From an uncultured candidate division Zixibacteria bacterium (GTDB lineage Bacteria > Zixibacteria > MSB-5A5 > GN15 > FEB-12), in contig CAWDXE010000004.1 of the NCBI GenBank assembly GCA_963806185.1, positions 192,001 through 256,000 on the forward strand: 64,000 nucleotides of DNA, read 5' to 3'. Position numbers and translations under genes: made by a program. The notes beneath the pieces are model-generated. The model was not told the DNA's origin. It was given only the letters and a program-made list of their open reading frames with translations, and searched no databases. Shown in pieces: positions 1 through 63,993 of this stretch; positions within the stretch are counted from its first letter, which is position 1, and every line of letters starts with the position of its first letter.

Positions 1-1304
1 CTTGGCGCGAGAAGTCCATCAGGCTGTCGACGAACCGTTTGATCTTGAAGATATTCTCGACGATCGACTTGCTGTTGAACTTGACCTTCTCGGGTTGCCG
101 CGATCGAGATTGATCGACAGCAGCTCAGCGTTGTTGGATATGATCGACAGGAAGTTATTCAGCTCGTGGGCGACCGACGCTGCCATTTCGCCTCGCGCGA
201 CCAGTTTCTCGGACAGTATGACGTACTGCTCCATGGTGACTTCTTCGGTGATGTCCTGGACCGTCATGACGAGGCCGTCGTGTCCGTTGGGCAGCGCCTG
301 CAGCGGCGAAATTTTGAGCGACAGGACCTTCTCGAGATAGCCGGTGTTGTGGAAGTACCGGCGGTCGGCAAATTCCTGATTGGTGTGAGAACGGTGTTTA
401 GCATTCGCTGCCACCGCGGGCGTTGCTGTTCGGGGAGCAGATCGACAAAGACGGTCGGTTTCGGTTGTCGCCGATCAGGGTTATTTTGTCGCGATTGAGA
501 TCGAAGATTTCAAGGGCAATCGGATTAATGGTGGCAATCCGTCCGTGGATATCAATAACGACGATGCCGACCGGTGACTTGACCACGACCGATTCGTTGT
601 ACTTCTCCATGCGCAGCAGTGATTCATATATGTGGGCGTTGTGCAGGGCGTTGGAAACCAACTGGGCATACAGTTCGAACAGATACAAGATCGGACTTCA
701 GAAACATCTTCGCCTGGTTGGAGTTGTCCAGATAGATGACGCCGATGACTTGTTCCCTGGACGTGCAGCGGGACGCACATGATCGAGCGCAAGATGCAGT
801 TCGACGACGGATTTCTGATGGGCGTACCGATCGTCCGCCATGGCGTCGGACGTGTACACCGGCTTACCGGTCCGGGCGACCTGGCTGGTAATCGACGACG
901 AGATGCGGAAGTCCTCTTCCATCATCTGTTCTTTGCAGAGATTGTACGCCGACTTCATCTGCAATTCGCCGTCGGCGTCCAGCAGCATGATGAGGCCGCG
1001 CTCGGCCTGCATCAGTTCGAATGGCCTTCTCCATCACCAGGCGAAGAACATCGTCGAGCACGAGCGACGAGTTGATCGCAATCGAGATCTCAAGTAGGGC
1101 TTTGAGATCGGCTGAACGCCGCGTTGCCCCGTCGCCGTCTTCTTCCACGCGCGGGTTGGTCTGAGCGACCTTGCTGAGCGTAGCTTCCAGGTCGGCAAAC
1201 ATCTCCATAGCCAACTTGCCGGTATCTTCGACATCCATCGGTGACGGCCGATTGGTCGGAAGGGCCAGAGGATCGAGTGTAGAGCGGCTCTGCTGTATAG
1301 ACAT
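1..1304 (-). pseudogene. GAF-PAS sensor histidine kinase, broken by multiple frameshifts and running off the window edge (probably sequencing errors)
   Basis: Consecutive minus-strand ORF pieces in different frames give the N-terminus/GAF start (LKALLEISIAINSSLVLDDVL), GAF (AERGLIML...RSIMCVPL), PAS (SPVGIVVIDIHGRIATINP) and HisKA (ARGEMAASVAHELNNFL). Confidence 0.8.
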
Positions 1305-26310: not shown

Positions 26311-28980
26311 GTGAAGACAGAGTTAAACAAACTGGCAATCATCCTGACGGCCGTTCTATTGTGCATGCTGTCCGCATCGGCATGGGCGGAGGTCGCCGGG
26401 AAGATTTCGGGTACGGTGACGGATGTGAAAGGGGGCGATCCCCTCATCGGTGCCACCGTTCAAGTTATTGGCACTGACTATCGCACCAAGACCGACGAAG
26501 ACGGGGAATACTTCATTATTAATCTGCCGGTCGGTAAGTACGATATCGCCGTGACACACGTCGGCTTCGCATCGATCACCAAAAAGGAAGTGCGGGTCCT
26601 GGTCGATTTGACAACGCCGGTCGACTTCTCGTTGGCGGAGATGGCGGTCGAATTGAAAAACCAGGTCGTCGTGTATGCCTCGGCGCCGGTGATTCAGCGT
26701 GACCTTACGAGTTCAAAGGTCATATTTACCGCTGATCGTCTGAAGAATCTACCCAACATACAATCGGTGCAGTCGGTCCTCACCAATTATCCGGGCGTGG
26801 TTGTCGACCAGAATCTCGACTTGCACGTTCGCGGCGGCCGGTCGGGTCAGATTTCCTATTTCTATGACGGTTTTTCCGTGCAGGATCCGTTTGTGGCCGA
26901 CGCCGGTATCCGTATCATGCCAACCGCCCTGGAAGAACTATCTTTAACCTCAGGCGGTTTTACGGCCGAATACGGCGAAGCGATGTCGGGTGTTGTAAAC
27001 GCGGTCAGCCGCGAAGGCAACAATGATTATCATGGCGGCTTGAAAATGTTTGACGGCGCCACCCAGTCATATGACGTCACCACGGGGGACTGGACGGGTC
27101 TGAAACGAGTCGGGAATCGGTCGGTGAGTTTCAACGTCTCCGGCCCTGTTCCCGGATTCGCCGAGAAGCGGTTTACCTTCTTCTCCGCCGGCGAGTATTA
27201 CCGCAATATCAACTACTTGCCGCATGACTGGGCAATCATCTACACTGGAACGACCAAGCTGTCCTATCATGCGACCAATCGACTGAAACTTAAAGGCAAC
27301 TTCACCTATTCTCGTTCCAACGGTGCGACGTACAATCACCGCGACGTCAATGATGTTTCCTTCGATCTCAATCTTGACGGGCTGCCTATTAATAAGAAAG
27401 AAGCCTACCTCGGCGGCCTCTCCGGCACCTATGCATTTAGTGAGAGAATGGTCTGGTCGTTGCAGTATAATCGTTTCTCGACCTACACGAAGAGCGCTCC
27501 CGAGCCGCTCTTCGACACCTATTGGCGCAATTGGCCGGGATATTCCGAGGATAGCACGGGCGAATACAACGGCACTATCCACCGCCACAATTATCGCGAT
27601 CAGATGGATAATTCCGATCCGTACGAACTGGTCGGTTTTGCCAACGGTGACCGCATCGACCCGACCTATTCATACCGCAAGAGTGTGTATAATTCAGTGA
27701 CCAGCAATCTGGTCGGTCAATTGGGCAAAGCGCACCAGCTTAAGGCCGGGTTTGAATGGCGGAAGTACGATGTCAATCGCGACTTCAAGCAGTTCTACAA
27801 CTCGCGTCCGTACAGCGAATTTTACCACATAAAACCGCTGTACGTATCGACGTTTGTGCAGGATAAGATTGAATACGCCGACTTCGTGATCAATCTCGGT
27901 CTGCGCTATGACTATCGCGATCCGGACGCGACTTACAACACCACCCCCGGATCCAGGACACCGATATACAAGAAGGCCGACGCCAAGTCACGTTTCGCGC
28001 CGAGGCTGGGCGTTTCGTTCCCGATCTCGGTCAATTCGGTGATGCATTTCAACTACGGCATTTACTATCAGATGCCCATCTACAAGTATCTCTACTTCAA
28101 CCTTGATGGTGAAGTCAATTCCGGTTTCCCGTTGCTGGGCAACCCCGATCTGTCACCCGAACGGACCGCGTCATACGAATTGGGTCTCGATCACCTGTTT
28201 GGCGAGAACCTGCGGGCCGACGTGACCGCGTATTACAAGGACATAAGCGATCTGGTGTCGACTCGACCCGTGTTCAAGGTTGCCGGCAACGAAGTGACTC
28301 GCTTCATCAACGCCGACTACGGCTCGGTGGTCGGGTTTGACGTTGCTTTGGAACGACTGCCCAAGACCGGTTACCTGAGCGGTTCGTTGTCGTATGGCTT
28401 CATGATGGCGAGCGGCATCGGCTCATCGGCCATGGAACCGTACTACACCTACATCACGTCCACGGAGGATACCCTGGCACCGGTAAAAGAATATCCGCTT
28501 GATTTCGATCAGCGCCATACCTTGACGGCTGTCCTGGATTATCGCGTTCCGGCCGACTGGAAAGGCGATCTCTTCGGCCTGTCGCTCCCGAGTAACTGGG
28601 GACTCAACATGGTCGGGTACGTCGGCTCCGGACTGCCCTACTCCAAGACCGATAGCAAGGGGAACCGGGTCGGCGATCGCAACGCGTATCGCTTGCCAAC
28701 GTACATGAGCGTTGACGCTCGCTTCAATAAAGATTTCGTACTGCGGAACAATGGTTCGCTGCTTACCTACTTCATCGAAGTAGACAACCTCTTTGACCGC
28801 CGCAATGTCCTGTCGGTGTATCAGTTCACCGGCTTGACAGATGATGACGGCGTAGTGGTTGGGACCGGCCTGCAATTAAGCGAAACCGATCTGGAACGGG
28901 CCAACCGCTTGTACGATCATGATCCTCAGAACTATTCACCCCCGCGGACAATCCGAACCGGGATTGAACTGCACTTTTAA
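26311..28980 (+). CDS. TonB-dependent receptor with N-terminal carboxypeptidase-regulatory-like domain
   Basis: KISGTVTD...GATV, plug LHVRGGR...GGFTAEYG..SGVVN, GNPDLSPE, terminal PRTIRTGIELHF. Confidence 0.95.
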   Translation: MKTELNKLAIILTAVLLCMLSASAWAEVAGKISGTVTDVKGGDPLIGATVQVIGTDYRTKTDEDGEYFIINLPVGKYDIAVTHVGFASITKKEVRVLVDLTTPVDFSLAEMAVELKNQVVVYASAPVIQRDLTSSKVIFTADRLKNLPNIQSVQSVLTNYPGVVVDQNLDLHVRGGRSGQISYFYDGFSVQDPFVADAGIRIMPTALEELSLTSGGFTAEYGEAMSGVVNAVSREGNNDYHGGLKMFDGATQSYDVTTGDWTGLKRVGNRSVSFNVSGPVPGFAEKRFTFFSAGEYYRNINYLPHDWAIIYTGTTKLSYHATNRLKLKGNFTYSRSNGATYNHRDVNDVSFDLNLDGLPINKKEAYLGGLSGTYAFSERMVWSLQYNRFSTYTKSAPEPLFDTYWRNWPGYSEDSTGEYNGTIHRHNYRDQMDNSDPYELVGFANGDRIDPTYSYRKSVYNSVTSNLVGQLGKAHQLKAGFEWRKYDVNRDFKQFYNSRPYSEFYHIKPLYVSTFVQDKIEYADFVINLGLRYDYRDPDATYNTTPGSRTPIYKKADAKSRFAPRLGVSFPISVNSVMHFNYGIYYQMPIYKYLYFNLDGEVNSGFPLLGNPDLSPERTASYELGLDHLFGENLRADVTAYYKDISDLVSTRPVFKVAGNEVTRFINADYGSVVGFDVALERLPKTGYLSGSLSYGFMMASGIGSSAMEPYYTYITSTEDTLAPVKEYPLDFDQRHTLTAVLDYRVPADWKGDLFGLSLPSNWGLNMVGYVGSGLPYSKTDSKGNRVGDRNAYRLPTYMSVDARFNKDFVLRNNGSLLTYFIEVDNLFDRRNVLSVYQFTGLTDDDGVVVGTGLQLSETDLERANRLYDHDPQNYSPPRTIRTGIELHF

Positions 28981-28997
28981 GGTGGAACGGTAGCCCT

Positions 28998-31748
28998 ATG
29001 AAGCACTCGAACAAAACAGCCATTTTCATTGCCGCCCTCTCGGTGGTGGCCATACTGGCGGGCACCGTCTGGTCGCGACCTTATAACGAGCGGCCTCGCC
29101 GTGCACAGTCAATAGAAGGCGGCGGACCGCTGCCGATCCCATCGCCCATAACCGTGGATCAGGTGACGCACAACCTGGGCAATCTGGCCACGACGGTTGA
29201 TAACTGGGGGTATGTGGGCGGTTATGGCTATGCCAATCTGCCCTCCGGCGAATGGCCGCGGGGATCGGGTCACAATTACCTCGCTGAAATCAAGTATTGG
29301 ATGGGCGGCGTGACCCCGTCGGGCGACACGCTGGTGGCCAATTCCGATGACGATTTTGAAGCCCTGCCGTCGCTGATTTCCGGAGCGAGCGAAACACGAA
29401 TTCTCATGTCCAGCGATACGACTCGCTACTATGGCTATGACCCGAGCGACACCGTCGGTCTGGGGGCCGGCAGTCCGGCGCACGGCTGGCGTATCTGGAA
29501 CGGCGACTCCGCCGCGTGGGTGTACAACCGCGTCTACAGCGCCATTGATCATCAGTACTACGCCGGCGGGCCGGCCTCACTGCAGGAATCGCACTATCGC
29601 TTCGGTGACCAGGCGCTGGGGAATTCGCTGATGGGTCTCGAAATGACCCACACCGTGCTCGGCTGGAACTACTGCTACAACGACGACTTTCTTTTTGTGG
29701 TGCTTGAGATCACAAACAATTCTGCGGTCGATTATACGAACTTCGCCTTTGGCTTGTACATCGATATCGACGTTGGCGAAAACAAGGTGCCCGGCCAGAA
29801 CGGCAATCTGGGCGATATGGTGTCCTCCGATTCGTCCGAGAATCTGGCATGGATCTATGACGCCGACAATTTTGACGCCTATTGGCGGCAGACTGGTATT
29901 TTGGGGACCAAGTATCTCGAAACGCCGGACGGAATCGGTATGACAGCCTTGCGGACCGGCGACTGGGCACTTCTGCCCGACGAAGATGCCGGTCGGTTCG
30001 AGATGATCAACAGTACAGAATTCGACGGTTCGTTGCCGCCGACCGATCAGTATTACGTGCAGTGTACCCGAGGTATCAACCTCGAGGCCGGGAAGACCAT
30101 TCGCGTCGTCTATGCATTGATCGCAGGGAAGAACGAAGCCGACTTCCGGGCCAACGCCGCGCTGGCGCAGGAACTCTACAACAATCACTTCGTCGGTCCG
30201 CAGCCGCCGGTCACTCCGACCGTCCATGCCCGTGCCGGCGATCGTAAGGCATACGTCTATTGGAATGACACGGCCGAAGTGTCGATTGACCCGATGACTG
30301 GGTTGTCGGACTTCGCCGGATACAAACTATACCGCAGCGAGGACTTCGGCCTTACCTGGGGTTCGGTGGACGACAATAACGAGAATAACTGCCTGACCGT
30401 CGACTACTACCCCGTGACCGCCTATGCGGCGGCCAGCCCCGGTGACCCGATCGGTCACAGCTACATTGATACCAACCTCACCAACGGGGTGGAATACTGG
30501 TACTGTGTATCTGCTTATGATCTGGGCGTGAGCGGCGTGGTCGATCCCCTGCAGTCCGGATTTTCCGTTGCCGGCGGAGCGCCAAATGTCGTGTCGATAA
30601 CGCCGCGCACCGATCCGGCCGGCGCCTATACGGCTGCCGGAACGGTCGCCCATACCACGACGGGGAGCTCGCTGCCCTCCGATGGCAACGTGCTGCCAAT
30701 AGTATTTGATCAGTCAGCTATCACCGGCGACGAATACCAGGTCGTTTTTGATGAACAGCCGGATCAAACCTACTGGAGCCTGATCAATACGACTACCGGC
30801 GATACTGTCCTGGCCAACCAGTCGCGCTATGCCGGCGAGCCGGAATTATACAATATCGGTGAAGGCGTTCGCGTCGTGGTACGCAACGGCGACTATGCCC
30901 CGCGTGACGCCGCGCAGACCTCTTTCGCCAGCCCCGGTGACACAACCTTGAATCTGGGAGCGTTCTTCGGGCCGTCGATTGCCGCTTTATACGATAACGA
31001 CTCCTATACGTTCGGCGACGGCAAGTTCCGCGCGACGTATGAAGTACGTTATACCGGCGATACTACCTACGCTTTCTCAATCTGGGAAGCCCTTAACTGG
31101 GAAAGCGATCCGCATCCGCAGTATCGCCCGCTGGCGGCAGTTCCGTTCGAGGTGTGGAATGTAACGGAAAATCGTCGAGTCAATCTGATGGTCACGAAGA
31201 ACGAGGCGGCGATGGACGGCACCTGGGGACCCCAGAATTCGCTTATCATCGTCGATCTGCCGTACGACACAACGGCCGACGTCACCTCACTCGCCTTCCC
31301 GTACCTTTGCGGTTGGTGGTTCCGCTTTGATCTGGCGACATTCAATCCGTCGGTAGGAGACGTGTTCACGATCGACGGAGCGCCACTCAACGGCCCGACC
31401 GACGTTTTCGCTTTCCGTACTGATGGCGTCAGCGGTGCGTCGGCAACGGCTCAGCTTAGGAAGATTAAGGTCGTTCCTGACCCGTATTTTGCCCGGTATT
31501 CGTCCCGAGTGGAGACGGAAAACGGCGAAACAGTCCTGCAATTTGTGAATCTTCCCGACAAGTGCACGATTCGCATTTACACGCTGACCGGCGATCTGGT
31601 CAATACGATTGAGAAGAATGACTTTGGTGGAACGGCGGAATGGAACCTGCTTTCCAGTGATCAACGGCAGATTTCTTCCGGCATATACATTTACCACGTT
31701 GACTCACCGTACGGGGAACGCCTCGGACGGTTTGCGGTGATCAAGTAG
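28998..31748 (+). CDS. Large secreted protein with FN3-like segment and T9SS-type C-terminal sorting domain
   Basis: Signal peptide; GYKLYRS...YIDTNLTNGVEYWYCVSAYD; tail IKVVPDPY...IRIYTLTG...SGIYIYHV...GRFAVIK. Confidence 0.8.
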   Translation: MKHSNKTAIFIAALSVVAILAGTVWSRPYNERPRRAQSIEGGGPLPIPSPITVDQVTHNLGNLATTVDNWGYVGGYGYANLPSGEWPRGSGHNYLAEIKYWMGGVTPSGDTLVANSDDDFEALPSLISGASETRILMSSDTTRYYGYDPSDTVGLGAGSPAHGWRIWNGDSAAWVYNRVYSAIDHQYYAGGPASLQESHYRFGDQALGNSLMGLEMTHTVLGWNYCYNDDFLFVVLEITNNSAVDYTNFAFGLYIDIDVGENKVPGQNGNLGDMVSSDSSENLAWIYDADNFDAYWRQTGILGTKYLETPDGIGMTALRTGDWALLPDEDAGRFEMINSTEFDGSLPPTDQYYVQCTRGINLEAGKTIRVVYALIAGKNEADFRANAALAQELYNNHFVGPQPPVTPTVHARAGDRKAYVYWNDTAEVSIDPMTGLSDFAGYKLYRSEDFGLTWGSVDDNNENNCLTVDYYPVTAYAAASPGDPIGHSYIDTNLTNGVEYWYCVSAYDLGVSGVVDPLQSGFSVAGGAPNVVSITPRTDPAGAYTAAGTVAHTTTGSSLPSDGNVLPIVFDQSAITGDEYQVVFDEQPDQTYWSLINTTTGDTVLANQSRYAGEPELYNIGEGVRVVVRNGDYAPRDAAQTSFASPGDTTLNLGAFFGPSIAALYDNDSYTFGDGKFRATYEVRYTGDTTYAFSIWEALNWESDPHPQYRPLAAVPFEVWNVTENRRVNLMVTKNEAAMDGTWGPQNSLIIVDLPYDTTADVTSLAFPYLCGWWFRFDLATFNPSVGDVFTIDGAPLNGPTDVFAFRTDGVSGASATAQLRKIKVVPDPYFARYSSRVETENGETVLQFVNLPDKCTIRIYTLTGDLVNTIEKNDFGGTAEWNLLSSDQRQISSGIYIYHVDSPYGERLGRFAVIK

Positions 31749-31754
31749 AGGAGA

Positions 31755-32732
31755 GTGGCGATGAGAACGGCTGCATTAATCATTTGTTGTCTGTTGCTGG
31801 CGACCGCCCTTTCCGCTCAGCAGAGCACCGTCGGAGCCGCCGGCGCGCAGTTCCTCAAGATCGGCGTTGGATCGAAATACCAGGCGATGGGGGAAGCCTC
31901 AGTCGCCGTGGCGGATGACATCTATTCGATGTACTGGAACCCGGCCGGTTTGGCCGCTATTGAAAACGGTCAGATCAGCTTCACCAACGTCAATTATGTA
32001 CTCGATATCGACTTGAACTGGGTGGGATACGCCAAGAACTTTGAAAACGTCGGCGTTTTCGGCGTCTCCGCCACCGTGCTGTCGATGGGTGAGCAGGAGA
32101 TTACCAATATCGATAATCAGGATGGTACGGGGCAGAGCTACTCGGCGTCTTCGTACGCTCTGGGTGTCTCCTTTGCCCGCCAGTTGACCGCCAAATTCGC
32201 CTTCGGCGCCACAATCAAGTATGTGTCTGAGAAGATCCATCTGGAAAAGGCGGACGGCGTGGCGATCGACATGGGGACGATGCTCAATACGGGGTACCGG
32301 AATCTTCGTTTGGGCATGAGCATCACGAACATGGGCGCCGACATGAAGTTCGATGGTCCGGATCTGAGCGTTCCGAGCTCCAGTCCTGAGACGAAGTACG
32401 ACGTAGCGTCGTACAATCTTCCCCTGACGTTCCGCGTCGGACTGGCCTACGACGTCGACTTCGGCCCAAAATCACTGCTGACCGTGTCGGGCGAGTTGAA
32501 GCATCCGAATGACAATGACCAGAAAGGCTCGCTGGGGCTGCAATACGGTTTCGATCAGAAGTTCTTCCTGCGCGGCGGGTATAAGATTAACTATGACGAG
32601 GAAACGCTGGCCCTGGGCGGCGGCCTGTCGACTACCGTGTCCGGGCAGACCCGGCTGGTGATTGATTACTCGTGGCAGGATTTTGGACGGTTGGAGACGA
32701 CCCAACGGTTTTCGGTCGGCTTCACCTTCTGA
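31755..32732 (+). CDS. PorV/PorQ-family beta-barrel
   Basis: AQFLKIGVG...AMGEA...YWNPAGL, LPLTFRVG, terminal F. Confidence 0.9.
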   Translation: MAMRTAALIICCLLLATALSAQQSTVGAAGAQFLKIGVGSKYQAMGEASVAVADDIYSMYWNPAGLAAIENGQISFTNVNYVLDIDLNWVGYAKNFENVGVFGVSATVLSMGEQEITNIDNQDGTGQSYSASSYALGVSFARQLTAKFAFGATIKYVSEKIHLEKADGVAIDMGTMLNTGYRNLRLGMSITNMGADMKFDGPDLSVPSSSPETKYDVASYNLPLTFRVGLAYDVDFGPKSLLTVSGELKHPNDNDQKGSLGLQYGFDQKFFLRGGYKINYDEETLALGGGLSTTVSGQTRLVIDYSWQDFGRLETTQRFSVGFTF

Positions 32733-51818: not shown

Positions 51819-53225
51819 ATGTCATCCGACCGTCAACCGGCGGAACCGTACCGCATCAAATCAGTCGAGTCCATTCGACTCCTTTCGCGCCCCGAACGCG
51901 AGCTCAAGCTCAAGGCCGCCAAGTACAATCTGTTCAAGGTCGATGCTGCCGACATCTATGTTGATCTTCTCACCGACTCCGGCACCGGGGCTATGTCTGA
52001 CCGCCAGTGGGCGGCTATTATGATGGGCGATGAATCGTATGCCCGCGCCCGCTCCTTCTATCGTTTTGAGCGCACCATTCAGGATATCTTTCGCAAGAAG
52101 AAAATCATTCCCTGTCACCAGGGACGCGTGGCCGAGAATCTGATTTTCAGCACGATTCTCAAGAAGGGGCAGTACGTCGTCAACAACACCCACTTCGATA
52201 CTACGAGAGGCAATACCCTGCACAAGGGCGGCATTCCGATCGACTTGCCGTGTCGTGAGTCCCTATCCATGGATCCTCACCCTTTCAAGGGGAATATGGA
52301 TACGGCTGCGCTTGAGGATTTCATTCGTGAGAAGGGTGTCGAGAAAATCGCGATGGTCATCCTCACCATCACGAACAATTCTTGCGGCGGCCAACCTGTT
52401 TCGCTGGCCAATATCCGCGAAGTCTCCGAAATCTGCCACCGCTATGGCCTCCGCTTTTATTTTGACGCCGCCCGGTTCGCTGAGAATGCCTGGTTCATCA
52501 AGAAACGCGAGCCCGGCTTCGAAAATCAGTCCGTCCGCCAGATCGCGCAGCAAATGTTTGAGCTATGCGACGGGGTCATGATGTCAGCCAAGAAAGACGG
52601 CCTGGCCAACATGGGCGGTTTCATTGCCCTAAACGACGAGGACCTCTACGACCAGATAGCCGAACTGATGATTCTGATTGAAGGCTTTCCGACCTACGGC
52701 GGCCTGGCCGGACGCGACCTCGAGGCTGTCGCCGCCGGACTCGAAGAGGTACTGGAGTCCGACTACCTCGAATTCCGCGTGGATCAGGTGGCGTATCTGG
52801 GGAAGAGAATTGTCGAGGCCGGCATGCCGATTATCCAGCCGACCGGCGGTCATGCCGTATTTGTTGACGCGGGACGCTTGCTGCCGCACATCCCGGCATG
52901 GCAGTTCCCGGGCCAGTCGCTGTCGTGCGAGTTCTATGTCGAAGGCGGCGTGCGAACGGTGGAAATCGGCTCACTCATGTTTGGCGGAGTGGATGAGGAG
53001 ACGGGTAAGAAATTTACTGCCCGTCAGGAGCTGGTGCGCATGGCGATTCCTCGACGAGTGTTCACCAACTCGCACATGGACTATATCGCCGAAGTGGCCG
53101 AGCGAATCGTCCGGCGCAAGGATAAGATCCGCGGCATGAATATTGTCCGGGAATCGATGTACTTGCGGCATTTCACTTGTGATCTGGAAATAGCCAATGA
53201 ACAAACAACTTCGGCGAAGAAGTAG
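51819..53225 (+). CDS. tnaA: Tryptophanase (beta-eliminating lyase)
   Basis: DLLTDSGT, MSAKKD PLP lysine; FDTT and LRHFT are tryptophanase-type, whereas tyrosine phenol-lyase has FTTT/LRFFT. Confidence 0.85.
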   Translation: MSSDRQPAEPYRIKSVESIRLLSRPERELKLKAAKYNLFKVDAADIYVDLLTDSGTGAMSDRQWAAIMMGDESYARARSFYRFERTIQDIFRKKKIIPCHQGRVAENLIFSTILKKGQYVVNNTHFDTTRGNTLHKGGIPIDLPCRESLSMDPHPFKGNMDTAALEDFIREKGVEKIAMVILTITNNSCGGQPVSLANIREVSEICHRYGLRFYFDAARFAENAWFIKKREPGFENQSVRQIAQQMFELCDGVMMSAKKDGLANMGGFIALNDEDLYDQIAELMILIEGFPTYGGLAGRDLEAVAAGLEEVLESDYLEFRVDQVAYLGKRIVEAGMPIIQPTGGHAVFVDAGRLLPHIPAWQFPGQSLSCEFYVEGGVRTVEIGSLMFGGVDEETGKKFTARQELVRMAIPRRVFTNSHMDYIAEVAERIVRRKDKIRGMNIVRESMYLRHFTCDLEIANEQTTSAKK

Positions 53226-53238
53226 CGTGGGGGTACGG

Positions 53239-53826
53239 ATGAATCGTGCGATTCCTTTCGTGCTGGCTGTCGCGCTCCTGGGGGCAGGATTAGGCTGCGG
53301 CGTGCGCATCCAAACCGGCCCGGCTTCGGAAGAACAACAGACCGAGCGTGCCGAGGTAACCGGCAAGGATCAGCGTATTTCATGGAAGAATCGGTTTGAC
53401 GGCGCGTCGCAAAGACAACGAGTGGTTTACCTGAAATTCTTTATTGATTCCACCTCCGCGAATTATTTCCAGTATGGGATGAATATTGCCGACGAATGGC
53501 GGAAGGGGGAAGAGGGGCGCAAGGCCGAAATATCGGCCGATGAAATGCGGCAGACGATCGACAATTCGATCGCGAACCAGCGACCCGTATTGGAAGCGAA
53601 CGACGATGTCGTCGACTATGCGATGGGAAGAATCAAGGAAGACGCCTTCTTCGATCGTGCTACGATGGACATCATCAGTCAATTGCGCGATGGGTATTTC
53701 AGCATGTATGACGTTGTCTTTTTGCCCAACGGAACTCGCGAGGAATACCTCGACCGCCTTTACGCCGAACAGTCGCGCCTCCAGAACCTGAGCAAAGAGC
53801 TCGAAGACGATTTGGGCAGGTACTGA
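53239..53826 (+). CDS. Hypothetical lipoprotein
   Basis: Hydrophobic signal with LGC lipobox; helical body. Confidence 0.6.
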   Translation: MNRAIPFVLAVALLGAGLGCGVRIQTGPASEEQQTERAEVTGKDQRISWKNRFDGASQRQRVVYLKFFIDSTSANYFQYGMNIADEWRKGEEGRKAEISADEMRQTIDNSIANQRPVLEANDDVVDYAMGRIKEDAFFDRATMDIISQLRDGYFSMYDVVFLPNGTREEYLDRLYAEQSRLQNLSKELEDDLGRY

Positions 53827-54118: not shown

Positions 54119-57100
54119 TTGAATTTGCGCCCGCTAACCGAGACCGAAAGTTGTCGACTGCCGAAGTCAAAGAGCTTCTCTTTGGCTGCTATGGCCCTTT
54201 CTTTGTTTGGGCCGTTTTTCGTTTTGCCCCTTCTCACTGTTTCTGTAATTGGCGCTACAAACGACCTGGCGGTCCTCACCTCCAATTCAACCAGCTTTGC
54301 ATTCACCGTCTCCGTTCCCGGCGATCTCTCCAATTTACAGCGACTTACCGGTGCCGATTCATCCATCACTTTCACCAAGACGGTGCTCGTTGGAATTCCG
54401 ACCGGTGGCTCCGCGAGAGTCGTTCGGTCCGAAGGGTACGACGCGGTTCCCGTGACTGACTTGACTGACCACCTTGCCCCCACCGCACAACTTGTTCAAC
54501 TGGCAGCGCCCACCACGGTTCGCGGTCGCCAGTATGTGGCGGTTTCCATCAACCCGATCGTGGGATCGCAAGTGTATCGCCGCGTGGTAGTCGAACTCGC
54601 CTTCGCGGGCGGACTGAGCAGCGGCGCTGCCACCGACGATCCGGTCTTTGATCGCATCTTTAGCCGGTCGATCGCCAACTATGATCAATTTGCCAGATGG
54701 CCGTCGATGCCGCTTTGACATCCCGCCGACCACATCGTTGGCGGAAATATCCGATCCGTTTGCGTCCGGCAACCCCTGGTGGAAAATGTCTGTCCGGCAA
54801 ACCGGACTCTACCGCCTTACCGGATCACAACTGCAGACCGCCGGCATTCCGCTTGGGACATCGTCGGCTGCCATTCGGATATTCAATGGCGGCGGCCTCA
54901 TGAACGAGCCGGACAACTATCGCCCCCGCCCCGAATTCAAAGAAATCGCTCTGAACATCTCCGACGGTGGTGACGGTGCGATTGACGCCGCCGATTATGT
55001 GGAATTCTACGGTGAAAGCGTCGATCGGTGGGTCTTCCCTGAGCATGCCGAACCGTATTACGCCGACAACGTGTATACGACCGACAACGTCTACTGGCTT
55101 ACCATTACCGACGATTTCGGTAATCCGCCGACCCGCATGGCCGTGACGACCGTAACTTCCGGCGGCGCGGTGGACACGACCATTTCGACCTATCGTCGAC
55201 TCCTTCATACCGAACAGGATCATCTCATTTCCGAGGATTTTGACGCATTCGTTCGCGACTACTTCGAATGGTTCTGGACCGACCAGACATCGTTTTCATT
55301 AAACGTTTCGACGCCGAATCTGGTGATCGGCGATTCCACGTGGATCAACGTGGCGGCCAACACGGCGGGCATCGGTTCGACCATCGGCTTCACCAACTTG
55401 CTGGTCAACAACCAATCGGCAGTGGGTAAGTCGTGCACGCGCACCGGCTGCACGTACTTCGCCAACAATTTCGCGATTGGCAGTAACCTGCTCGCAATGA
55501 CCATGACGCCGTTAAATACCGCCGAGGGCGTTCCACCGTACCTCAACTACGTCGAGGTCGGATATCTCAGCCGCCTGGCGCCGGTGGGTAATGAGCTCGA
55601 CTTCGCACTCGACAGCATGCTGCGCATGGCGTCAATTCAGATCACCAATTCGTTCGGCCAGACTCCCGTGATCCTCGATCTGGCCGACACGCGTCGCCCT
55701 ACCCTGGTGACCGGCTGGACCAGTCAGAGCGGCCAGCTTTCATTCGACTGGAACCTGAGCAGCCACCCGGTGAATCGATTTTACGCGGTTTCCAGTCGCC
55801 TTTCCGTGGCCAATGCAGATTTTAAAAGAGTCATCCCCACCGACCTTCGCGCTGCCGCCGGTCAGACCGACCTGATTATTGTCACCCAGCCGCAGTTCAC
55901 CTCGGCTTTAAATAGTTATGTCGCCTACCGCCAGCAAGGCGGCTATACAATCCGTATGGCACTGGTGGGCGATATCATGGATAATTTCTCGTACGGTCTG
56001 TACGATCCGACGGCGATTCGCGACTTCCTCAAATTCACCTACGAACAGTATCCGTCGCCGGCGCCGTCAGGCGTGCTGTTTGTCGGCGACGGCAATTACG
56101 ACTTTCAGAATATCCTTGGGCAGGGCCAGACCAATTATGTGCCGCCGTATATCCGAACCGCCGACGAAACCTCCAGCGACGACAATTACGTGTATTTCGG
56201 TGAATTCGGCATTCTGGACGGCGACACCAGCTATGCCGGTGATCGCGGCTATGACATGATGACGGCACGCTGGCCGGTCAAATCGACCGCGGAGATACAG
56301 ACGATTATTGGCAAGATCAGATCGTACGAGTCGGCATCGACCCTGGGAAGCTGGCGCAATCGAATCGTTCTCGTGGCCGATGACGAGTATCGTGGCTCGT
56401 ATGCCGGTGAGAGTTTCCACACAACGCAGACGGAATTTCTCGAGAAAAACTATATCCCCAAGCATTTCGTACGCAATAAAATCTACGCCTGGGACTACCC
56501 CTTTGTGAATCGCGAGAAGCCGGCGGTCAACGACGCCATCGTGAATGCCGTCAATAACGGCGCGCTCATCGTAAACTATGTCGGGCACGGCAATCCCGAA
56601 CTCTGGGCGCACGAATCGATCTTCCGCCGTTCGTCCGATCTGCCCCGACTCCACAATGCCGATCGACTGCCGTTGTTTTTCGCCGCGTCGTGCGATATCA
56701 GCTTGTTCGACGATCCGGAACGTCAGTCCATGGGCGAAGACCTCTTTCTCGCCTCAAACGATGGCGCCATCGGTGTGGTCTCAGCCAATCGCATAGTGTA
56801 TTCGCAGGACAATGCCGATTTCAATCGGGAAGTCTTCGGCGTGCTATTGGACAACACCGACCTGACTATGTGCGAAGCGATTTACGCCGCCAAGCTGCAG
56901 CGTCAATATCCCGGACCGATTCGACAGACCAACGACCAGAAGTTCGTATTCTTTGGTGACCCCCTGCTCAAACTGGCGCAGCCGCAGCTCCGTGCGGAAT
57001 TTACCCAACGGCCCGACACTCTCGTCGGTCTGGCGCCGGTACACGTGTCAGGACAGATTGTCGACGGTGATGGAAATCCGGTCCCGGTTGACGGCCAGTT

Positions 57101-58046
57101 ACAGATACTCGCTTTCGACAGCGATCGAAACAAGACGCACACCCTGTACAGCACCACGCCGCCACTTACGATTCCCTACAAGATGACCGGCCCGCAGATC
57201 TTCCGCGGCCCGGCTAACGTCGTCAGTGGATTGTTCGACTTCAGCTTCGTCACGCCTCTCGACATCACTTATGGCGGCAACGACGCTCAAATCGTGATCT
57301 ATGCCATCCTCGACTCGACTGACGCGGTCGGGCTGATTGACACCATTCAGGTCGCCACGACTATCTCGACGGCGGTTGACTCAGTCGCTCCGGCCATCAG
57401 TTTCTACCGATCGGACAGTCCGACCCCGATTACCTCCGGGTCAGTCACTGTCGGGGATACCATTCGAATCGCAATTTCGGACCTTTCCGGAATCAATTTG
57501 ACCGGCTCCCTGGGGCACGGCATCTCGGCTGAGATTGACGGGGAACTGGATATGAACGCCAATTTGACCGATAACTTTGAATATACGGTCGGGGACTTTT
57601 CGACCGGCGAAGTTCAATATTCGCTGGCCGGGCTGACGGCCGGGCGGCATGAAATCAAGATTAAGGCGTGGGATAATGCCAACAACTCGTCGTCGTCGGT
57701 TTTTTCCGCCAATATCACCGACCAGACAGCCGGGTCGCTGGCCAATGTGCTGAATTATCCCAATCCTATGATGGAGCAGACTACGTTCTATTTCGACCTC
57801 AACGCGCCGGTGCAGCGATTTACCCTCGACATTTTTACCCTCGCCGGGCGCAAGATTCGCAGTTTCAGCGGTGCCGACCTGCCCGCAGCGAGCTATCCCA
57901 ACGCCTCCTTCAGGGCGGAGTGGGACGGTACCGACCTCGCCGGCGACCGGGTCGCCAGTGGCGTCTATATCTATCGAGCGGTCGCCGAGCCTCAGGCTGG
58001 GGGCGAACCGGTCGAGTCCTTTGGAAAAGTTGTTGTTATTAACTAA
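54119..58046 (+). CDS. porU: T9SS sortase PorU (C25 peptidase), split into 54119-54718 and a +1-frame ORF ending at 58046
   Basis: ORF1 has the signal peptide and a propeptide-like region. ORF2 has WWKMSVRQTGLYRL, DPTAIRDFLK, catalytic VNYVGHG and AASC, FFGDP, IKAWDNANNSS and a CTD (NYPNP...SGVYIYR). Confidence 0.85.
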
Positions 58047-58064: not shown

Positions 58065-60653
58065 ATGAAAGTACGCACGTTCCTGACGCTGGTTTTCACC
58101 CTCGGCATGGTGCTGACATTTTCCGTCAGCAGTTACGCCGATATCTCCAACGCCGCGATGCTATTCTTGCGGATCGCCGCAGGCGCCCGGCCCGCCGGCA
58201 TGGGTGAAGCTTTTGTGGCGGTGGCCGATGACGCCACGGCGACTCACTGGAATCCGGCTGGATTGGGTAATCCGCCGCTTTCCGATTCGTGGATCAACGT
58301 CCGCGTGCCGGATCAATATCGGCCCCTGACCGGAGTTGCCACCGTCAAGGCAGGCGGCGGTTCGACGTATCAGGCCTACGACCTGTGGGCTATTTCGCCC
58401 AAAGGCCTCGTGCGTTACGACAATCGTAATTGGAATGTCGATGAGGTCTTTGCTACCAAGACCGATCAGACGGCAGAGCGAATAGTCTCCTCTTACTGTG
58501 ACATCGCCGATCCGCAACAACTGGAGCGAGTCATGGACAGAGTAGCCCGAGCCAATAATGCCGACAGCTACGAAAACCTGGTTGCGTTTCGCGACTCGCT
58601 GTTGACCCATCTTCCGGACGGATACGATCGGAAGGATGAGATTCAGCTGAGCGCCGATTCTGTGCTCATTTACTACCGCCTCTGTCGCCTGAATTGGACG
58701 CCGCTGAAAGAAGCCATCAAGAATTATTCCGATGCTATCGCTTCGGGCAGCATGGGCAAGACCCAGGCTGATCGCATCTGGTCCCGTCTCGATCAGTCGC
58801 GGATGCGTTACCTACCCGAGGACCTGCACATACCGTATTCGGCCCTCGTGGAAGGAGTGCCGACTTCGATCGCTTCCGATGGCCAGCGTCTGGCCGTCGG
58901 CACGAGCAACGGCCTGTTGACCTACAATGGTCAGCGCTGGACAATTTATACCGAAACCAAGGGACTGCCCTCCAACAAGGTCACCAGCCTGCAGCTGGCC
59001 GGCTCAGTCATCGTCGTTGGCACGGATAAGGGGTTGGCAATCTATGACGGAGTTCGCACCGAACCGGTCGTCGATTCAACCAATTCACTTACCGGTGAAA
59101 TCGAAGCCGTGGGTGGCGCCGCTTCACCCAACCTGCTCGCCGTGTCAGGCGGAGATTTGTATCGCTATGACGGTCGGAAGTGGGTTAATACGATGAACTA
59201 CACCGTCGCCATCGGCGATACTCCGGAGAAGATTGCCGGACGGTTCATGGTCTATGGGACGCCTCAGGAAATGGCGGCCTATCTCGCAAAACTCGAGACC
59301 TCGTTGCGTTCCGCCGACAGTGCCGGCGCGGCGTTGACTCCCGGCGCGGTGATTCAGGTCCCGTTCCTGGCCCAGATCAAGGGACAGGCGACTTCCATTC
59401 AGACAACGCCCACGATGAGCCGTATCTGGATCGGCACCGATCAGGGCGTCCTGTTTTACACTGGCGAAGGCTGGACACTTCCCGGTTACAAACCGTATAC
59501 GGTCGGCCTCGGCCAGACTGTCGATTCGCTCGTCGCCCTACGCAAATTGGAGCCCGAAGAGGCGTCGGCGTATGCCGAAGCGCTCCGCACCGTCAATGAT
59601 CTCGACAACAACGTGATCGATTCGGGCCGAGTGGTCAAGGTATATGCGAACCGTGCTGCCGCTCCCGTGACGCGGCTGCAATTCGACGGCGGCCGCCTGT
59701 ATGTGGCGACGACCCGCGGATTGCTGGAATTTGAAAACGGTCAATGGTCGCAATCCGAGCGCGGCGATATGGGTACTTCTTCATCACTAGGGGCGGAAAC
59801 CCATCAGAGTGAAACCTGGCTCGCCAGTCAGAATCAACTCTCGATCAAGAGTCGCGGTCGTTCCGAGTTCACGTTCATGCACGTGAAATGGCTCCCGGAA
59901 CTGGCTGACGACATCTACTACGGTTTCTTCTCGTTCACCAAGTGCAAAGAAGGTCTCGGCACCTTTGGTGGCAGCGTGACCTACATTTCGTACGGCACGT
60001 TTATTCGCACCACGGAGAGCGGACCGGAAGCCGTCGACGAATTCAAGCCGTTCGAAATGGCCTTCAGTCTCTCGTATGGCACGGCGCTGACCAACAAGCT
60101 GAAGGGCGGCGTGTCGGCCAAAGTCATCTACTCCCGCCTGTCTCCCCAGGGTGCGGCGGCCGAGCAGGGCCATGGAACCGCTACAGCGTTCGCGCTTGAC
60201 TTCGGTCTCTTGTACAATTGGAATAAGCGCCTGACCTTCGGTCTGGCCACCACCAACCTCGGACCCAAGGTCGCGTATATTGACGCTGCACAGTCCGATC
60301 CGTTGCCGATGAATCTCGCCTTTGGCTTCTCGTACAAACTGAAGGAATCCGATCTCACCCGTCTATTGATCGCGTTCGAGGGTAACAAGGACATCGCCAG
60401 CGGCTTCAACAATGCCCTGTCTCAGGAAGTTAAGGAAGTCGTGTGGAACGGCGGCGCCGAATTTACGTATGCGAACTTGATTTCCGCCCGCGCAGGCTAT
60501 ATCTACGATCAGGAAGGCGACATCAAGACGGCAACCGTCGGTATCGGCCTTCAGCCGATTTCCTGGGCCAAGGCCGATTTCTCGTACATTCCGAACAACG
60601 GAAATGTGACGTTGGCCAATACGCTGAGGTTCTCCTTGACGGTTCTGCCGTAA
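58065..60653 (+). CDS. porV: PorV-family barrel with large internal beta-propeller/LysM insertion
   Basis: N-terminal FLRIAAGARPAGMGEAFVAVADDATATHWNPAGL; C-terminal HVKWLPELADD...DPLPMNL...ANTLRFSL; directly downstream of porU. Confidence 0.8.
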   Translation: MKVRTFLTLVFTLGMVLTFSVSSYADISNAAMLFLRIAAGARPAGMGEAFVAVADDATATHWNPAGLGNPPLSDSWINVRVPDQYRPLTGVATVKAGGGSTYQAYDLWAISPKGLVRYDNRNWNVDEVFATKTDQTAERIVSSYCDIADPQQLERVMDRVARANNADSYENLVAFRDSLLTHLPDGYDRKDEIQLSADSVLIYYRLCRLNWTPLKEAIKNYSDAIASGSMGKTQADRIWSRLDQSRMRYLPEDLHIPYSALVEGVPTSIASDGQRLAVGTSNGLLTYNGQRWTIYTETKGLPSNKVTSLQLAGSVIVVGTDKGLAIYDGVRTEPVVDSTNSLTGEIEAVGGAASPNLLAVSGGDLYRYDGRKWVNTMNYTVAIGDTPEKIAGRFMVYGTPQEMAAYLAKLETSLRSADSAGAALTPGAVIQVPFLAQIKGQATSIQTTPTMSRIWIGTDQGVLFYTGEGWTLPGYKPYTVGLGQTVDSLVALRKLEPEEASAYAEALRTVNDLDNNVIDSGRVVKVYANRAAAPVTRLQFDGGRLYVATTRGLLEFENGQWSQSERGDMGTSSSLGAETHQSETWLASQNQLSIKSRGRSEFTFMHVKWLPELADDIYYGFFSFTKCKEGLGTFGGSVTYISYGTFIRTTESGPEAVDEFKPFEMAFSLSYGTALTNKLKGGVSAKVIYSRLSPQGAAAEQGHGTATAFALDFGLLYNWNKRLTFGLATTNLGPKVAYIDAAQSDPLPMNLAFGFSYKLKESDLTRLLIAFEGNKDIASGFNNALSQEVKEVVWNGGAEFTYANLISARAGYIYDQEGDIKTATVGIGLQPISWAKADFSYIPNNGNVTLANTLRFSLTVLP

Positions 60654-60678: not shown

Positions 60679-63600
60679 GTGACGTGCATAGGACGCTTGC
60701 TCACAACGCTTGTCACACTCGCTGCGGCCGCTACAACGGTCACGGCGAGTGACCACATTCTGACCGGAAAACGGGTTGTCACGCCACCCGCCGGAGAGAA
60801 TCAAGTCATCTACCGGTGTCTTACCGGCGAACTGGGACTTCCCATTAATCCTCCGGCAGCCCAGGGCCGGCCCGGTGCATTGTCGGCGGCTCGTGATCCC
60901 AACGCCGTCGATACGATCCGTTGCCTGGTCCTTCGCTACAATTTCCAGTTGGAAAGCCCGGACAATCCAAATACTACCGGCGACGGCCACATGGATATGC
61001 GGCCGCTCACTGATGAACAGATGCTGGCGCTCTACGGCCATTTCATGGACAAGCCGCCGCACGACTCGGCCTATTTTGATGCCCACATGCGCGCGTTGGC
61101 CAGGTATTACGAGACCGTCTCCAACGGCAAGCTGGTGATCACGTGGGATGTCTATCCTCCCGGCCGAGATTCGGTCTACCAGCTACCCCATCCGATGGGC
61201 TACTACGGATACTGCGAATTCCGCCCGGATTCAATTATCGCGGGGCTGGAACGGTACTTTGTCGACGCAATTCATCTGGCGGATTCTGCGCACATTATCG
61301 ATCCGGGACATCCCGATATCCAGATGAGCAATTACGACGCGTACTTCCTGTTCCACGCCGGCTCCGATCGTCAAAATGACATTGGGTTTCCCACGACCTG
61401 TCAGGATATGTTTACCGGCTTCATCCGATTCTTCGATTCGCTCGCCGTTGATGACGGCAGCCACTACATTCGCACGGCACTCCTGATGCCCGAGACGGCT
61501 ATCCAGGACAATCGCGTGACTGTCCTCAATGCCGTCATCGCCCACGAGTTCGGCCACCAGCTCGGCCTGCCCGACATGTACGCCACCAGCAGTTTTCTTT
61601 CCCAGCTGGGCGATTTCTCTCTCATGGACAACAACGGTTTTGGCACCGGCATTGACTACGGCTTTCCAGCCGGACGGGTGTTCGGCGGCTTGCCCGTGTA
61701 CCCCGACCCCTGGTGTCGGGCGTACCTTGGTTACGATACGGTCGTTAACTTCCGCCAGGGCGACGACATTCGCGTTGTTGCCGCGGCTGTCCAGTCGCAG
61801 AGCCTGAAGATCGCGCGGATCCCCATTACCGAGACCGAGTACTACCTGGTCGAGAATCGCCTCGATGAGATCGACGGGGACTCAGCCGCCGTGCGTTTGG
61901 ATCCGACTACGAATGTGATCCTCTGGCCGACCGATCGATCCGGCAACTTCAATCGCGAGTATGATTTTCTCATCCCCGGCAATGGCCTGGCCGTCTACCA
62001 TGTCGACGAAGCGGTCGCCGCCGCCGACTACAATCGGGACGGCGAAGACAATTTCCATGACAACCAGTTGCAGGTGTACGACCGCATTCTGGATCGAAGG
62101 TTCATCAGTCTCGTTGAGGCCGACGGATTGGTGAATCTGGGCGGCTATTATAGATCCGGTTATGGCAGTGCCGCTGATCTTTTCCGCGATGATCGCAATA
62201 CCCGCTTCACACCATATACGAATCCTCCTGCAGTCGATAACTCCGGCAACAATACGCACTATTATCTCGAGCATGTCACCCGCGATACGATCGGCACAAC
62301 CGGGCCGGGGAAACCGATCCTCGCCGACAGTGCGATTTCGTTTGATCTTTCCAACGACCGCACCGCCGTCGGCTTCCCGGTGCGCGTCGGCCGGCCGCTG
62401 GTCGGATTTTCACCCATCGTTGATGATCTGGATGATGACGGGAGTCCGGAGATCATCGTACCGGCAGACAGGAATCTGGCGGTGTTTGGATCGGACGGGC
62501 GCGGCTTCCTGAATCGTGTTGACTCCTGCGCCTCGTGCCCGCCGTTTCTCGATTCGGTGCACTCCGATGTCTTTCGGTGGAGCGGCGAAAATCCGAAAAC
62601 GCCCACACCGGTGCCGATATTCGTGCGACTCCCCAATCCGATAACGGCCGCCCCGGTGACGATCGGCCTCGGCGCTGAGCGCCATATTGTCGTCGGCATC
62701 CCGGCCAACGATACTGCCGGATTCACTCTGGTGTACGCGAATCAGGACGCCAACAATGATGGGATGGCAGATGCTACCGATACGATCACGACGCCGCGCT
62801 GGCCCCTGGCGCTGTCGGCGGCGGATTCGGCGATCTGGATACTGACATACTCGCTCGACGTGCACAGATATGACTTCAGAACAGATTCTCTTCACGCTTT
62901 TCCTCGAACGCTTTCGTACAACTCGCTCCAGGCGCCGCTGGGCATCGCGCAGCTGGGCAATCAACTCGTGGTTCAGGTTGCCGATTCCGCAGAAGATCAA
63001 ACGCGCTGGTGGTTGTATACCCCGAGCGGGACGAATCAATCACTGGACTTTGCCGGACTTTCGGGGATTTACCAGTTCGGCCCCCTGATCGTCGATGTCA
63101 ATCGCGACGGTGAACCGGAACTGGCAGCTTTCTCCTCTGCCGGCGACGGTATCATGTTTACCGTAGATGGATCCGTCGCACGGGTACTGGCCGAAGTTCA
63201 CACGGGGAACACGTTTACTACCAACCCCACAGCGGGCGACATTGACCTGGACGGTTACCCCGACATTTTGATCGGCGGAATCGGCAAGATGTACGCCTTC
63301 AATCGGGAATTGACGATGCTCTCCGATTTCCCGCGATTGATCAACGATCGGTTTCCGACTGACCCGGTTATCGCTTCCCCGATCATTGCAGGTATCGAAT
63401 CCGGCGGCCTTCCGGAATTCGCCTTCCCGACGGAGGTCGGCAACATGTATGCCTTTGGCGAAGCGCGGGCATCGGGCTTCCCGCTGACTTCCGGCGAACA
63501 GACGCAGGGGAGCTCGAGCAGTGTGCCGGTGGTGATTCGCGACAACGACCGCAATCTTCTCGGGTACCTCGGCGGTGATGGCTGGTTTTATGCCTGGGAC

Positions 63601-63993
63601 ATTTCGTCCGATTCAACACATGACGATTGGCCTATGAATGGCGGCGGTCCGGCCGGTTCCTTCCATTTCGATAACACAAAACTGCCGGTGCCGGCGACTT
63701 ACAGCGATAAGTTGCCCGAGGCCCGATTCTATAATTATCCGAATCCGGTGATCGACGGTGTAACAACCTGGCGCTATTTCCTGGGCGCTCCGGCGACGCG
63801 GGTGACGCTGACTCTGTACGACATGGCCGGTAACAAGCTTACCAGTCTCGAGGGTCCGACCAGCGGCGGCGTAGATAACGAGGTCACCTGGAATTGCAGC
63901 AGCGTCACGCCCGGCGTCTATCGCTGCCGTCTCGAGGCCGAATTCGCCGGAGAGACGCGAACGGTGTCCAAAGACGTGGCCATTATCAAGTAG
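60679..63993 (+). CDS. M6/immune-inhibitor-A-like metalloprotease with FG-GAP repeats and T9SS CTD
   Basis: FHAGSD, HEFGHQLGLPD, EYYLVENR; DLDDDG/DVNRDG/DIDLDG repeats; YNYPNP...PGVY...AIIK. Confidence 0.9.
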   Translation: MTCIGRLLTTLVTLAAAATTVTASDHILTGKRVVTPPAGENQVIYRCLTGELGLPINPPAAQGRPGALSAARDPNAVDTIRCLVLRYNFQLESPDNPNTTGDGHMDMRPLTDEQMLALYGHFMDKPPHDSAYFDAHMRALARYYETVSNGKLVITWDVYPPGRDSVYQLPHPMGYYGYCEFRPDSIIAGLERYFVDAIHLADSAHIIDPGHPDIQMSNYDAYFLFHAGSDRQNDIGFPTTCQDMFTGFIRFFDSLAVDDGSHYIRTALLMPETAIQDNRVTVLNAVIAHEFGHQLGLPDMYATSSFLSQLGDFSLMDNNGFGTGIDYGFPAGRVFGGLPVYPDPWCRAYLGYDTVVNFRQGDDIRVVAAAVQSQSLKIARIPITETEYYLVENRLDEIDGDSAAVRLDPTTNVILWPTDRSGNFNREYDFLIPGNGLAVYHVDEAVAAADYNRDGEDNFHDNQLQVYDRILDRRFISLVEADGLVNLGGYYRSGYGSAADLFRDDRNTRFTPYTNPPAVDNSGNNTHYYLEHVTRDTIGTTGPGKPILADSAISFDLSNDRTAVGFPVRVGRPLVGFSPIVDDLDDDGSPEIIVPADRNLAVFGSDGRGFLNRVDSCASCPPFLDSVHSDVFRWSGENPKTPTPVPIFVRLPNPITAAPVTIGLGAERHIVVGIPANDTAGFTLVYANQDANNDGMADATDTITTPRWPLALSAADSAIWILTYSLDVHRYDFRTDSLHAFPRTLSYNSLQAPLGIAQLGNQLVVQVADSAEDQTRWWLYTPSGTNQSLDFAGLSGIYQFGPLIVDVNRDGEPELAAFSSAGDGIMFTVDGSVARVLAEVHTGNTFTTNPTAGDIDLDGYPDILIGGIGKMYAFNRELTMLSDFPRLINDRFPTDPVIASPIIAGIESGGLPEFAFPTEVGNMYAFGEARASGFPLTSGEQTQGSSSSVPVVIRDNDRNLLGYLGGDGWFYAWDISSDSTHDDWPMNGGGPAGSFHFDNTKLPVPATYSDKLPEARFYNYPNPVIDGVTTWRYFLGAPATRVTLTLYDMAGNKLTSLEGPTSGGVDNEVTWNCSSVTPGVYRCRLEAEFAGETRTVSKDVAIIK

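Follow-up and report, generated by a model that had tools for sequence, protein, structure and literature searches.

A PorV orthologue of Zixibacteria with a predicted propeller and LysM modules between hatch and barrel

The window analyzed here is a stretch of 64,000 nucleotides from an uncultured Zixibacteria bacterium (GenBank assembly GCA_963806185.1, contig CAWDXE010000004.1, positions 192,001 to 256,000). It contains a gene for PorV, an outer membrane component of type IX secretion, located directly after the gene for the sortase PorU and followed by a gene with an M6-like metalloprotease domain. The porV open reading frame is translated without a stop and the product carries a large insert between its N-terminal hatch and the first strand of its barrel (Table 1). 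An earlier note on this DNA, made from the sequence, had described a porU-linked PorV interrupted by about 530 amino acids of propeller blades and LysM-like modules. The homologues of the protein bear Zixibacteria names, and the NCBI label is merely "PorV/PorQ family protein".

Table 1. Features of the porU–porV region, in window coordinates
Feature	Residues	Position	Strand	Remarks
porU sortase gene		54119..58046	+	NF033707 654 bits, cut-off 420; two reading frames in this assembly
porV with insert	862 amino acids	58065..60653	+	Of the 7 genomic PorV/PorQ-family genes scored, the one with the top PorV-orthologue score
Sec signal peptide	1 to ~25	58065..58139	+	Called by eye; in the model, residues 2-18 are helical and 20-28 have low confidence
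N-terminal hatch/plug segment of PorV	26-68	58140..58268	+	Ends in NPA motif; highest conservation (0.87)
Insert (~530 amino acids)	69-598	58269..59858	+	Between NPA motif and barrel strand 1
Seven-bladed beta-propeller, predicted	75-596	58287..59852	+	DSSP; LysM modules in loops that follow blades 1, 4 and 5
LysM module 1	126-164 and 253-257	58440..58835	+	Split by helical bundle; only module kept in Fibrobacterota forms
Four-helix bundle inside LysM module 1	169-244	58569..58796	+	Matched no specific structure; some homologues lack it or have it doubled
LysM module 2	376-433	59190..59363	+	Length highly variable among homologues (41-157)
LysM module 3	475-527	59487..59645	+	DSSP and profile matches
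14-stranded FadL-type PorV barrel	601-860	59865..60644	+	DSSP, structure comparison
M6-like metalloprotease-domain gene, type IX secretion-dependent type		60679..63993	+	Conserved downstream neighbor of porV

Similarity to PorV was found in residues 26-68 and 600-860. It stops after the motif HWNPAGLG (residues 61-68), and the barrel picks up again at S600, which agrees with the boundaries given in the earlier note. When the PDB was searched with phmmer, residue 66 of the query matched residue 64 of the Flavobacterium johnsoniae PorV and residue 604 matched residue 76; therefore, about 526 residues are extra. The GC content was flat across the region (0.57-0.58), the insert was matched in 60 of 61 related genomes, and of 121 proteins whose insert boundaries were scanned, 117 had the N-terminal NPA motif and 109 the motif at the barrel start. 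Since these observations exclude chance and a chimeric assembly, the insert is, by sequence comparison, genuine.

The gene is the PorV orthologue of this genome, as judged from family score, fold and context. The product passed the PorV/PorQ family model NF033709 (232.8 bits, cut-off 90) as well as PF19572 (66.8 bits, cut-off 27). Its score with the PorV equivalog model NF033710 was 162.6 bits, under the cut-off of 250 bits, plausibly because the insert splits the match; two short sister orthologues scored 272 and 253 bits. The runner-up in the genome, with 85 bits, was a 325-amino-acid protein encoded at 31755. The earlier note had used it as the PorV for comparison, and although it was right that this protein has no gap, it is a paralogue and the wrong comparator (85 versus 163 bits). 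The genome has at least seven genes of the PorV/PorQ family, and only the true PorV orthologue bears the insert; the six paralogues that were scored are 300-332 amino acids long. Another gene of the family scored best as PorQ (170 bits, under the cut-off of 220). Two trees were built from insert-free columns, one of 58 rows and a quick one of 52 rows, for which 18 rows were dropped and 12 added. In the 58-row tree the long PorV grouped with short PorVs and two Bacteroidota PorVs, and the paralogues stood apart at 96/77. In the 52-row tree it grouped with the short PorVs at 97, while the single Bacteroidota row was located among the paralogues; the placement of the Bacteroidota PorV thus differs between the two trees. 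The link to porU proposed earlier was upheld, as porU adjoined porV in 45 of 45 loci and in 56 of 56 long loci. This position directly after porU is shared with the porV of F. johnsoniae and P. gingivalis and occurs in Parabacteroides too. The genome shares with the F. johnsoniae and Porphyromonas gingivalis systems genes for SprA (over its cut-off), PorU and proteins resembling PorQ and PorZ.

An AlphaFold2 model was calculated from an alignment of 145 sequences (pLDDT 93.3, pTM 0.88), and strands were assigned by DSSP. It shows the features by which PorV is recognized, a 14-stranded FadL-type barrel and an N-terminal hatch, which together with the NPA motif are common to the PorV proteins of F. 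johnsoniae (6h3i/8gl6 chain F) and P. gingivalis. The barrel aligned with 6h3i_F over 297 residues (Z 35.9, root mean square deviation (rmsd) 2.8), and Foldseek gave an E-value of 3e-17 to 8gl6_F. Unlike in F. johnsoniae PorV, the extra residues before strand 1 are predicted to form a periplasmic propeller with three LysM modules, a fold that the model supports with high confidence. The propeller and LysM folds expected from the sequence therefore both appeared in the model, with corrections in number. All four blade motifs quoted in the earlier note are present in the sequence, but there are seven blades rather than four; both quoted LysM-like segments are present too, but there are three modules rather than two. 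Comparison with single WD40-type seven-bladed propellers gave Z-scores of about 21 (model range 73-600). Because blade 7 is closed by strand 75-80, the two ends of the insert meet at the barrel. The fold of LysM module 1 with its bundle had no Foldseek match at E<=0.001, the top rows of a structure comparison were generic helical bundles (Z<=6.7), and the sequence profile of this part found weak helical matches only. One match to each of the four module profiles was obtained in 108 of 128 full-length homologues; the others lacked the bundle, had it doubled (as in P0152, P0169 and P0170) or had an extra LysM. A further repeat run, apparently a second propeller, was seen in the insert of homologue P0097 (L061:5358-8798, 1147 amino acids).

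All three modules have the order beta-alpha-alpha-beta by DSSP. The profiles of modules 3 and 2 matched the LysM protein 4uz2 with E-values of 4.6e-11 and 6.3e-7, and the modules are mutually homologous (HH probability 85-97%). The assignment of module 1 comes from the model and from these pairwise matches; its own profile found no LysM. The Pfam LysM family (PF01476) was matched at E<=0.01 by 15 of 85 members for module 3 and 9 of 23 for module 2, and homologues such as L129 (47.8 bits) and P0067 (39.9 bits) passed Pfam LysM. The sole other match of the module-3 profile in the genome at E<0.01 was a lytic transglycosylase with three LysMs. T13 of AtlA is reported to contact peptidoglycan, and multiple LysMs to bind additively (PMC4083421). 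A threonine or serine occupies the corresponding position in 120/142, 126/144 and 128/143 rows of modules 1, 2 and 3, respectively, and a buried asparagine is kept in 139/141 rows of module 1 and 140/141 of module 3. The modules thus share strand and helix order, profile homology, conserved threonine and buried asparagine with bacterial LysMs (CBM50; 4uz2/4uz3, LytE 8i2e, AtlA 2mkx). They differ in that the second helix is longer, the modules are located in propeller loops instead of in tandem, and module 1 is split by the four-helix bundle.

The side of the membrane on which the insert lies was deduced from the barrel. In the model, long loops follow the odd strands and short turns follow the even ones. 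The turn between strands 6 and 7 aligns with residues 189-199 of the F. johnsoniae PorV, of which residues 193-199 are described as a periplasmic loop (Lauber et al., PMC10994853). It follows that odd strands begin on the periplasmic side, and with them strand 1 and the insert; this side is predicted with high confidence. Read with standard propeller topology, the DSSP string places the junction with the barrel in the c-d loop of blade 7 and the LysMs in d-a loops. The barrel would then sit on one face of the propeller and all three LysMs on the other, directed away from the membrane and thus at the wall.

The first 344 residues of the insert were matched in 181 of 201 genomes of the phylum (E<=1e-12), and the five of the 20 non-matching genomes that were checked all carry a long PorV. 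Loss of the insert in these 20 genomes was rejected because a query consisting of the barrel alone finds long frames phylum-wide. This query was used for a cleaner count of orthologues in 141 genomes of the phylum and 61 of a sister phylum. One orthologue each was present in 139 of the 141, and 138 of these were encoded in frames of 782-1166 amino acids, the remaining one being cut by a contig end; the survey of homologues suggested earlier therefore returned the same insertion in nearly every orthologue of the phylum. The sister phylum had an orthologue in 60 of 61 genomes, with every frame between 296 and 429 amino acids and the long form in 0/60. Short proteins found with the barrel query occur solely outside Zixibacteria, and the insertion site of the short orthologues, from records titled KSB1, Calditrichota and Marinimicrobia, comprises 4 residues. 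Marinimicrobia-type loci L110, L124, L125, L128 and L130 encode short-site PorVs of 438-465 amino acids that carry another kind of insertion, a stretch rich in Asp and Gly within the C-terminal half of the barrel.

The same insertion site is used by proteins named Fibrobacterota, Ca. Raymondbacteria, Chitinispirillaceae and Fibrobacter sp., and the idea that the form is restricted to Zixibacteria was rejected on this ground. Inserts of this Fibrobacterota type have about 360-460 amino acids, comprising the propeller and the first LysM only (HH probability 96.7% to module 1). The porU gene was found in just 1 of 50 metagenome loci of this type, a count made within the locus sequences. This suggests that the insert belongs to PorV itself, and that the tethering of the attachment complex, as the earlier note had put it, is possibly too narrow a function. 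The position that porU has in Zixibacteria was occupied in 40 of these 50 loci by a small membrane-anchored gene 5' of the long porV. Its product, of 190-210 amino acids, has a membrane helix at the N terminus and a C-terminal motif containing Cys (e.g., L156:5266-5877 and L199:5439-6002), and it had no Pfam match and no significant match in the Zixibacteria genome; the motif may resemble MuF-like domains. As insertion site and layout are common to both phyla, a single gain of the insert is the simplest reading, which the trees do not prove: one change, with weak support (42/92), was counted on the 58-row tree and two on the 52-row quick tree. At L091:3434-5394 two tandem short porV genes follow porU. 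Both trees place them beside the clade that has the insert; their lineage may be the sister of that clade, or it may once have had the insert and lost it.

The sequence comparisons show that the protein is a PorV, where its insert lies, which operon it belongs to, that the form is conserved across the phylum and that the modules are homologous to LysM. We consider it somewhat more probable than the contrary that the insert is a built-in peptidoglycan tether, comparable to the PorP-PorE pair fused into one chain. The insert would bind peptidoglycan under the outer membrane and hold PorV in place, with several weak LysM contacts adding up to an anchor. The anchor would keep PorV, and the PorU bound to it at the surface, beside the SprA translocon, and cargo would pass from SprA to PorV and then to PorU without PorV diffusing away. 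In the P. gingivalis pair, as described in PMC9143113 and PMC12773672, a FadL-family barrel (PorP, 14 strands) has a periplasmic propeller beneath it and a wall-binding domain further in. The PorE propeller is reported as likely to bind PorP (PMC9143113), and the peptidoglycan-binding residues of PorE as required for secretion (PMC12773672). The likeness has limits. The P. gingivalis pair consists of two proteins and uses an OmpA_C domain where the long PorV has one chain and LysMs; the lipoprotein PorE has TPR and CRD domains, which are absent from the long PorV; and PorP carries type B cargo whereas PorV carries type A. The long PorV would then work like PorP-PorE, but it is not PorE, and no homology is claimed. 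PorP was over its cut-off in 0/41 genomes of the phylum. Nine OmpA-domain matches were obtained in the genome, one of them a barrel-OmpA protein; none of the four proteins scanned has the layout of PorE, and the other five matches are frames of fewer than 300 amino acids.

Several observations weigh against a tether. The LysMs of this PorV stay under the Pfam gathering score (17.6 versus 20.9 bits), their second helix is longer than in canonical LysMs, and its module 2 does not have the buried asparagine. Of 45 distinct Fibrobacterota-type rows, inspected by eye, 2 have a threonine or serine in module 1 at the position of T13. As these forms keep the propeller and this one module only, the propeller may be the essential part. 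The nearest structure to module 1 is a pyocin baseplate chain (6u5b_6; Z 5.4, rmsd 2.0, 53 residues aligned over 6..139), which we take to be a LysM-type "glue" protein that binds protein. Sister lineages have SprA and a short PorV without the insert. Finally, a fixed PorV is at odds with published models of a mobile PorV that is driven off SprA (PMC10994853, PMC5562754).

The main rival to the tether starts from this release step. In Bacteroidota, cargo is described as binding to PorV loops within SprA, and energy from the GldLM motor as forcing PorV and its cargo off (PMC10994853, PMC12635249, PMC12365241). SprA is present here, but GldM was found in 0/61, GldL in 0/61 and GldN in 0/41 genomes of the phylum; these and all Gld searches below had no positive control, as no genome known to have the genes was searched. 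The insert could be a periplasmic docking handle for protein. Its propeller, LysM folds and bundle would bind an energizer or a translocon partner that pulls PorV and cargo off SprA, replacing the chain GldLM/GldKN/SprE-SkpA. We regard this as a serious possibility, though the less probable side of the question. It is consistent with reports that PorV-cargo release needs energy in Bacteroidota (PMC10994853, PMC12635249) and that SkpA touches the periplasmic base of PorV there (PMC10994853). All forms keep the propeller, whereas the number of LysMs is variable and the single one of Fibrobacterota degenerate, and the four-helix bundle has no precedent for glycan binding. A GldM positive control was sought in five short-PorV genomes, in their phylum and in two Bacteroidota plasmids, with no match. 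The five short-PorV genomes have SprA over the cut-off and GldM unmatched, and GldM was found in 0/41 genomes of one such phylum. The insert is therefore not required for a GldM-less system, which argues against the handle, and the notion that it necessarily replaces the motor was rejected. Moreover, no gene for a partner accompanies the insert in both phyla: a lipoprotein gene upstream of porU was found in 22 relative loci and in 0/20 order-level loci, and the Fibrobacterota-type membrane protein described above is unmatched here. Type IX systems that do without the known motor may be common among FCB phyla. We put forward, with considerable doubt, that Zixibacteria and Fibrobacterota have a motorless (Gld-free) type IX system in which PorV is fixed, anchored to the wall or gripped by a partner, and the propeller is the point where an undescribed energy source releases cargo from SprA.

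An unlikely explanation is that the insert binds peptidoglycan as a general link between outer membrane and wall, in the manner of OmpA or Pal, on an abundant barrel and with no role in secretion. The LysM evidence for it is identical to that for the tether, and a ratio of 1:6:110 has been reported for channels, attachment complexes and free PorV in P. gingivalis (PMC5562754). However, the genome already has its OmpA-domain proteins, including the barrel-OmpA protein, and the insert is confined to the true PorV orthologue among the family members scored. It is very improbable that the insert is a surface propeller standing in for PorZ, as the earlier note had considered, and handing lipopolysaccharide to PorU in its place. 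The blades do resemble those of PorZ (5m11, at rank 17) and of the Reg_prop propellers of hybrid two-component sensors (3v9f, 4a2l), with which they share blade motif family and seven-bladed fold. PorZ is described as a surface protein held by PorQ (PMC5562754), and the predicted periplasmic location of the insert largely removes this reading. The insert also differs from PorZ in having one propeller instead of two and no C-terminal domain (CTD) and in being fused into a barrel, it did not match NF052228, and the genome has its own candidates for both roles, the PorQ-like gene and the separate PorZ-like gene that the earlier note had advised looking for (740 amino acids, C3:313084-315231; 103 bits, under the cut-off of 260). 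An assembly chimera or a neutral passenger is hardly credible in spite of frame breaks elsewhere in the assembly (in porU and in a TonB-dependent-receptor-like gene in L142), given that the architecture recurs as a single copy in 138 of 139 genomes of the phylum, short proteins are limited to other phyla, and the insert contains invariant and near-invariant residues.

PorV serves as the model of an outer membrane "shuttle", a small and mobile protein that a rotary motor drives off the translocon. Throughout one phylum, and in at least some of another, PorV has a large periplasmic module predicted to face the wall, in genomes where the motor was not found by the searches described. This bears on type IX secretion outside Bacteroidota and raises the question of whether an anchored PorV can still secrete. 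Fibrobacterota include cultured species, and the shorter form of the insert may therefore be testable in vivo. No description of the propeller-LysM form of PorV was found in the open literature, although supplementary tables of type IX secretion genes could list such proteins. A systematic survey reported the system in Bacteroidetes only (10.1101/031039).

The neighboring genes provided further observations. The two reading frames of porU result from a frame change between 54709 and 54756, and relatives have one intact frame of about 1300 amino acids. A second sign of an indel in the assembly is the TonB-dependent-receptor-like gene at L142:31-4044, which appears split into several frames. The M6-like gene (NF052323 248 bits, under the cut-off of 600) lies 3' of porV in 46 of 56 long loci and 23 of 24 short loci; its presence in both lineages suggests a component of the system and not an ordinary cargo. 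The lipoprotein gene 5' of porU (window 53197-53826) encodes a probable lipoprotein of 209 amino acids with no family match, and it was dropped as a partner of the insert because it is not phylum-wide. Just past the operon (L143, C4:256001-270000) there are two DUF5683 genes, an NHL-repeat gene and a MoxR/Bat-type cluster that consists of AAA ATPase, vWA, BatD-like and TPR proteins, as judged partly from translations. Elsewhere in the window, at 26311-32732, genes for a TonB-dependent receptor, a CTD-type protein of 916 amino acids and a short PorV-family paralogue lie in a row, and a similar trio was found at locus L142. The short PorV paralogues may be dedicated carriers for the adjoining cargo.

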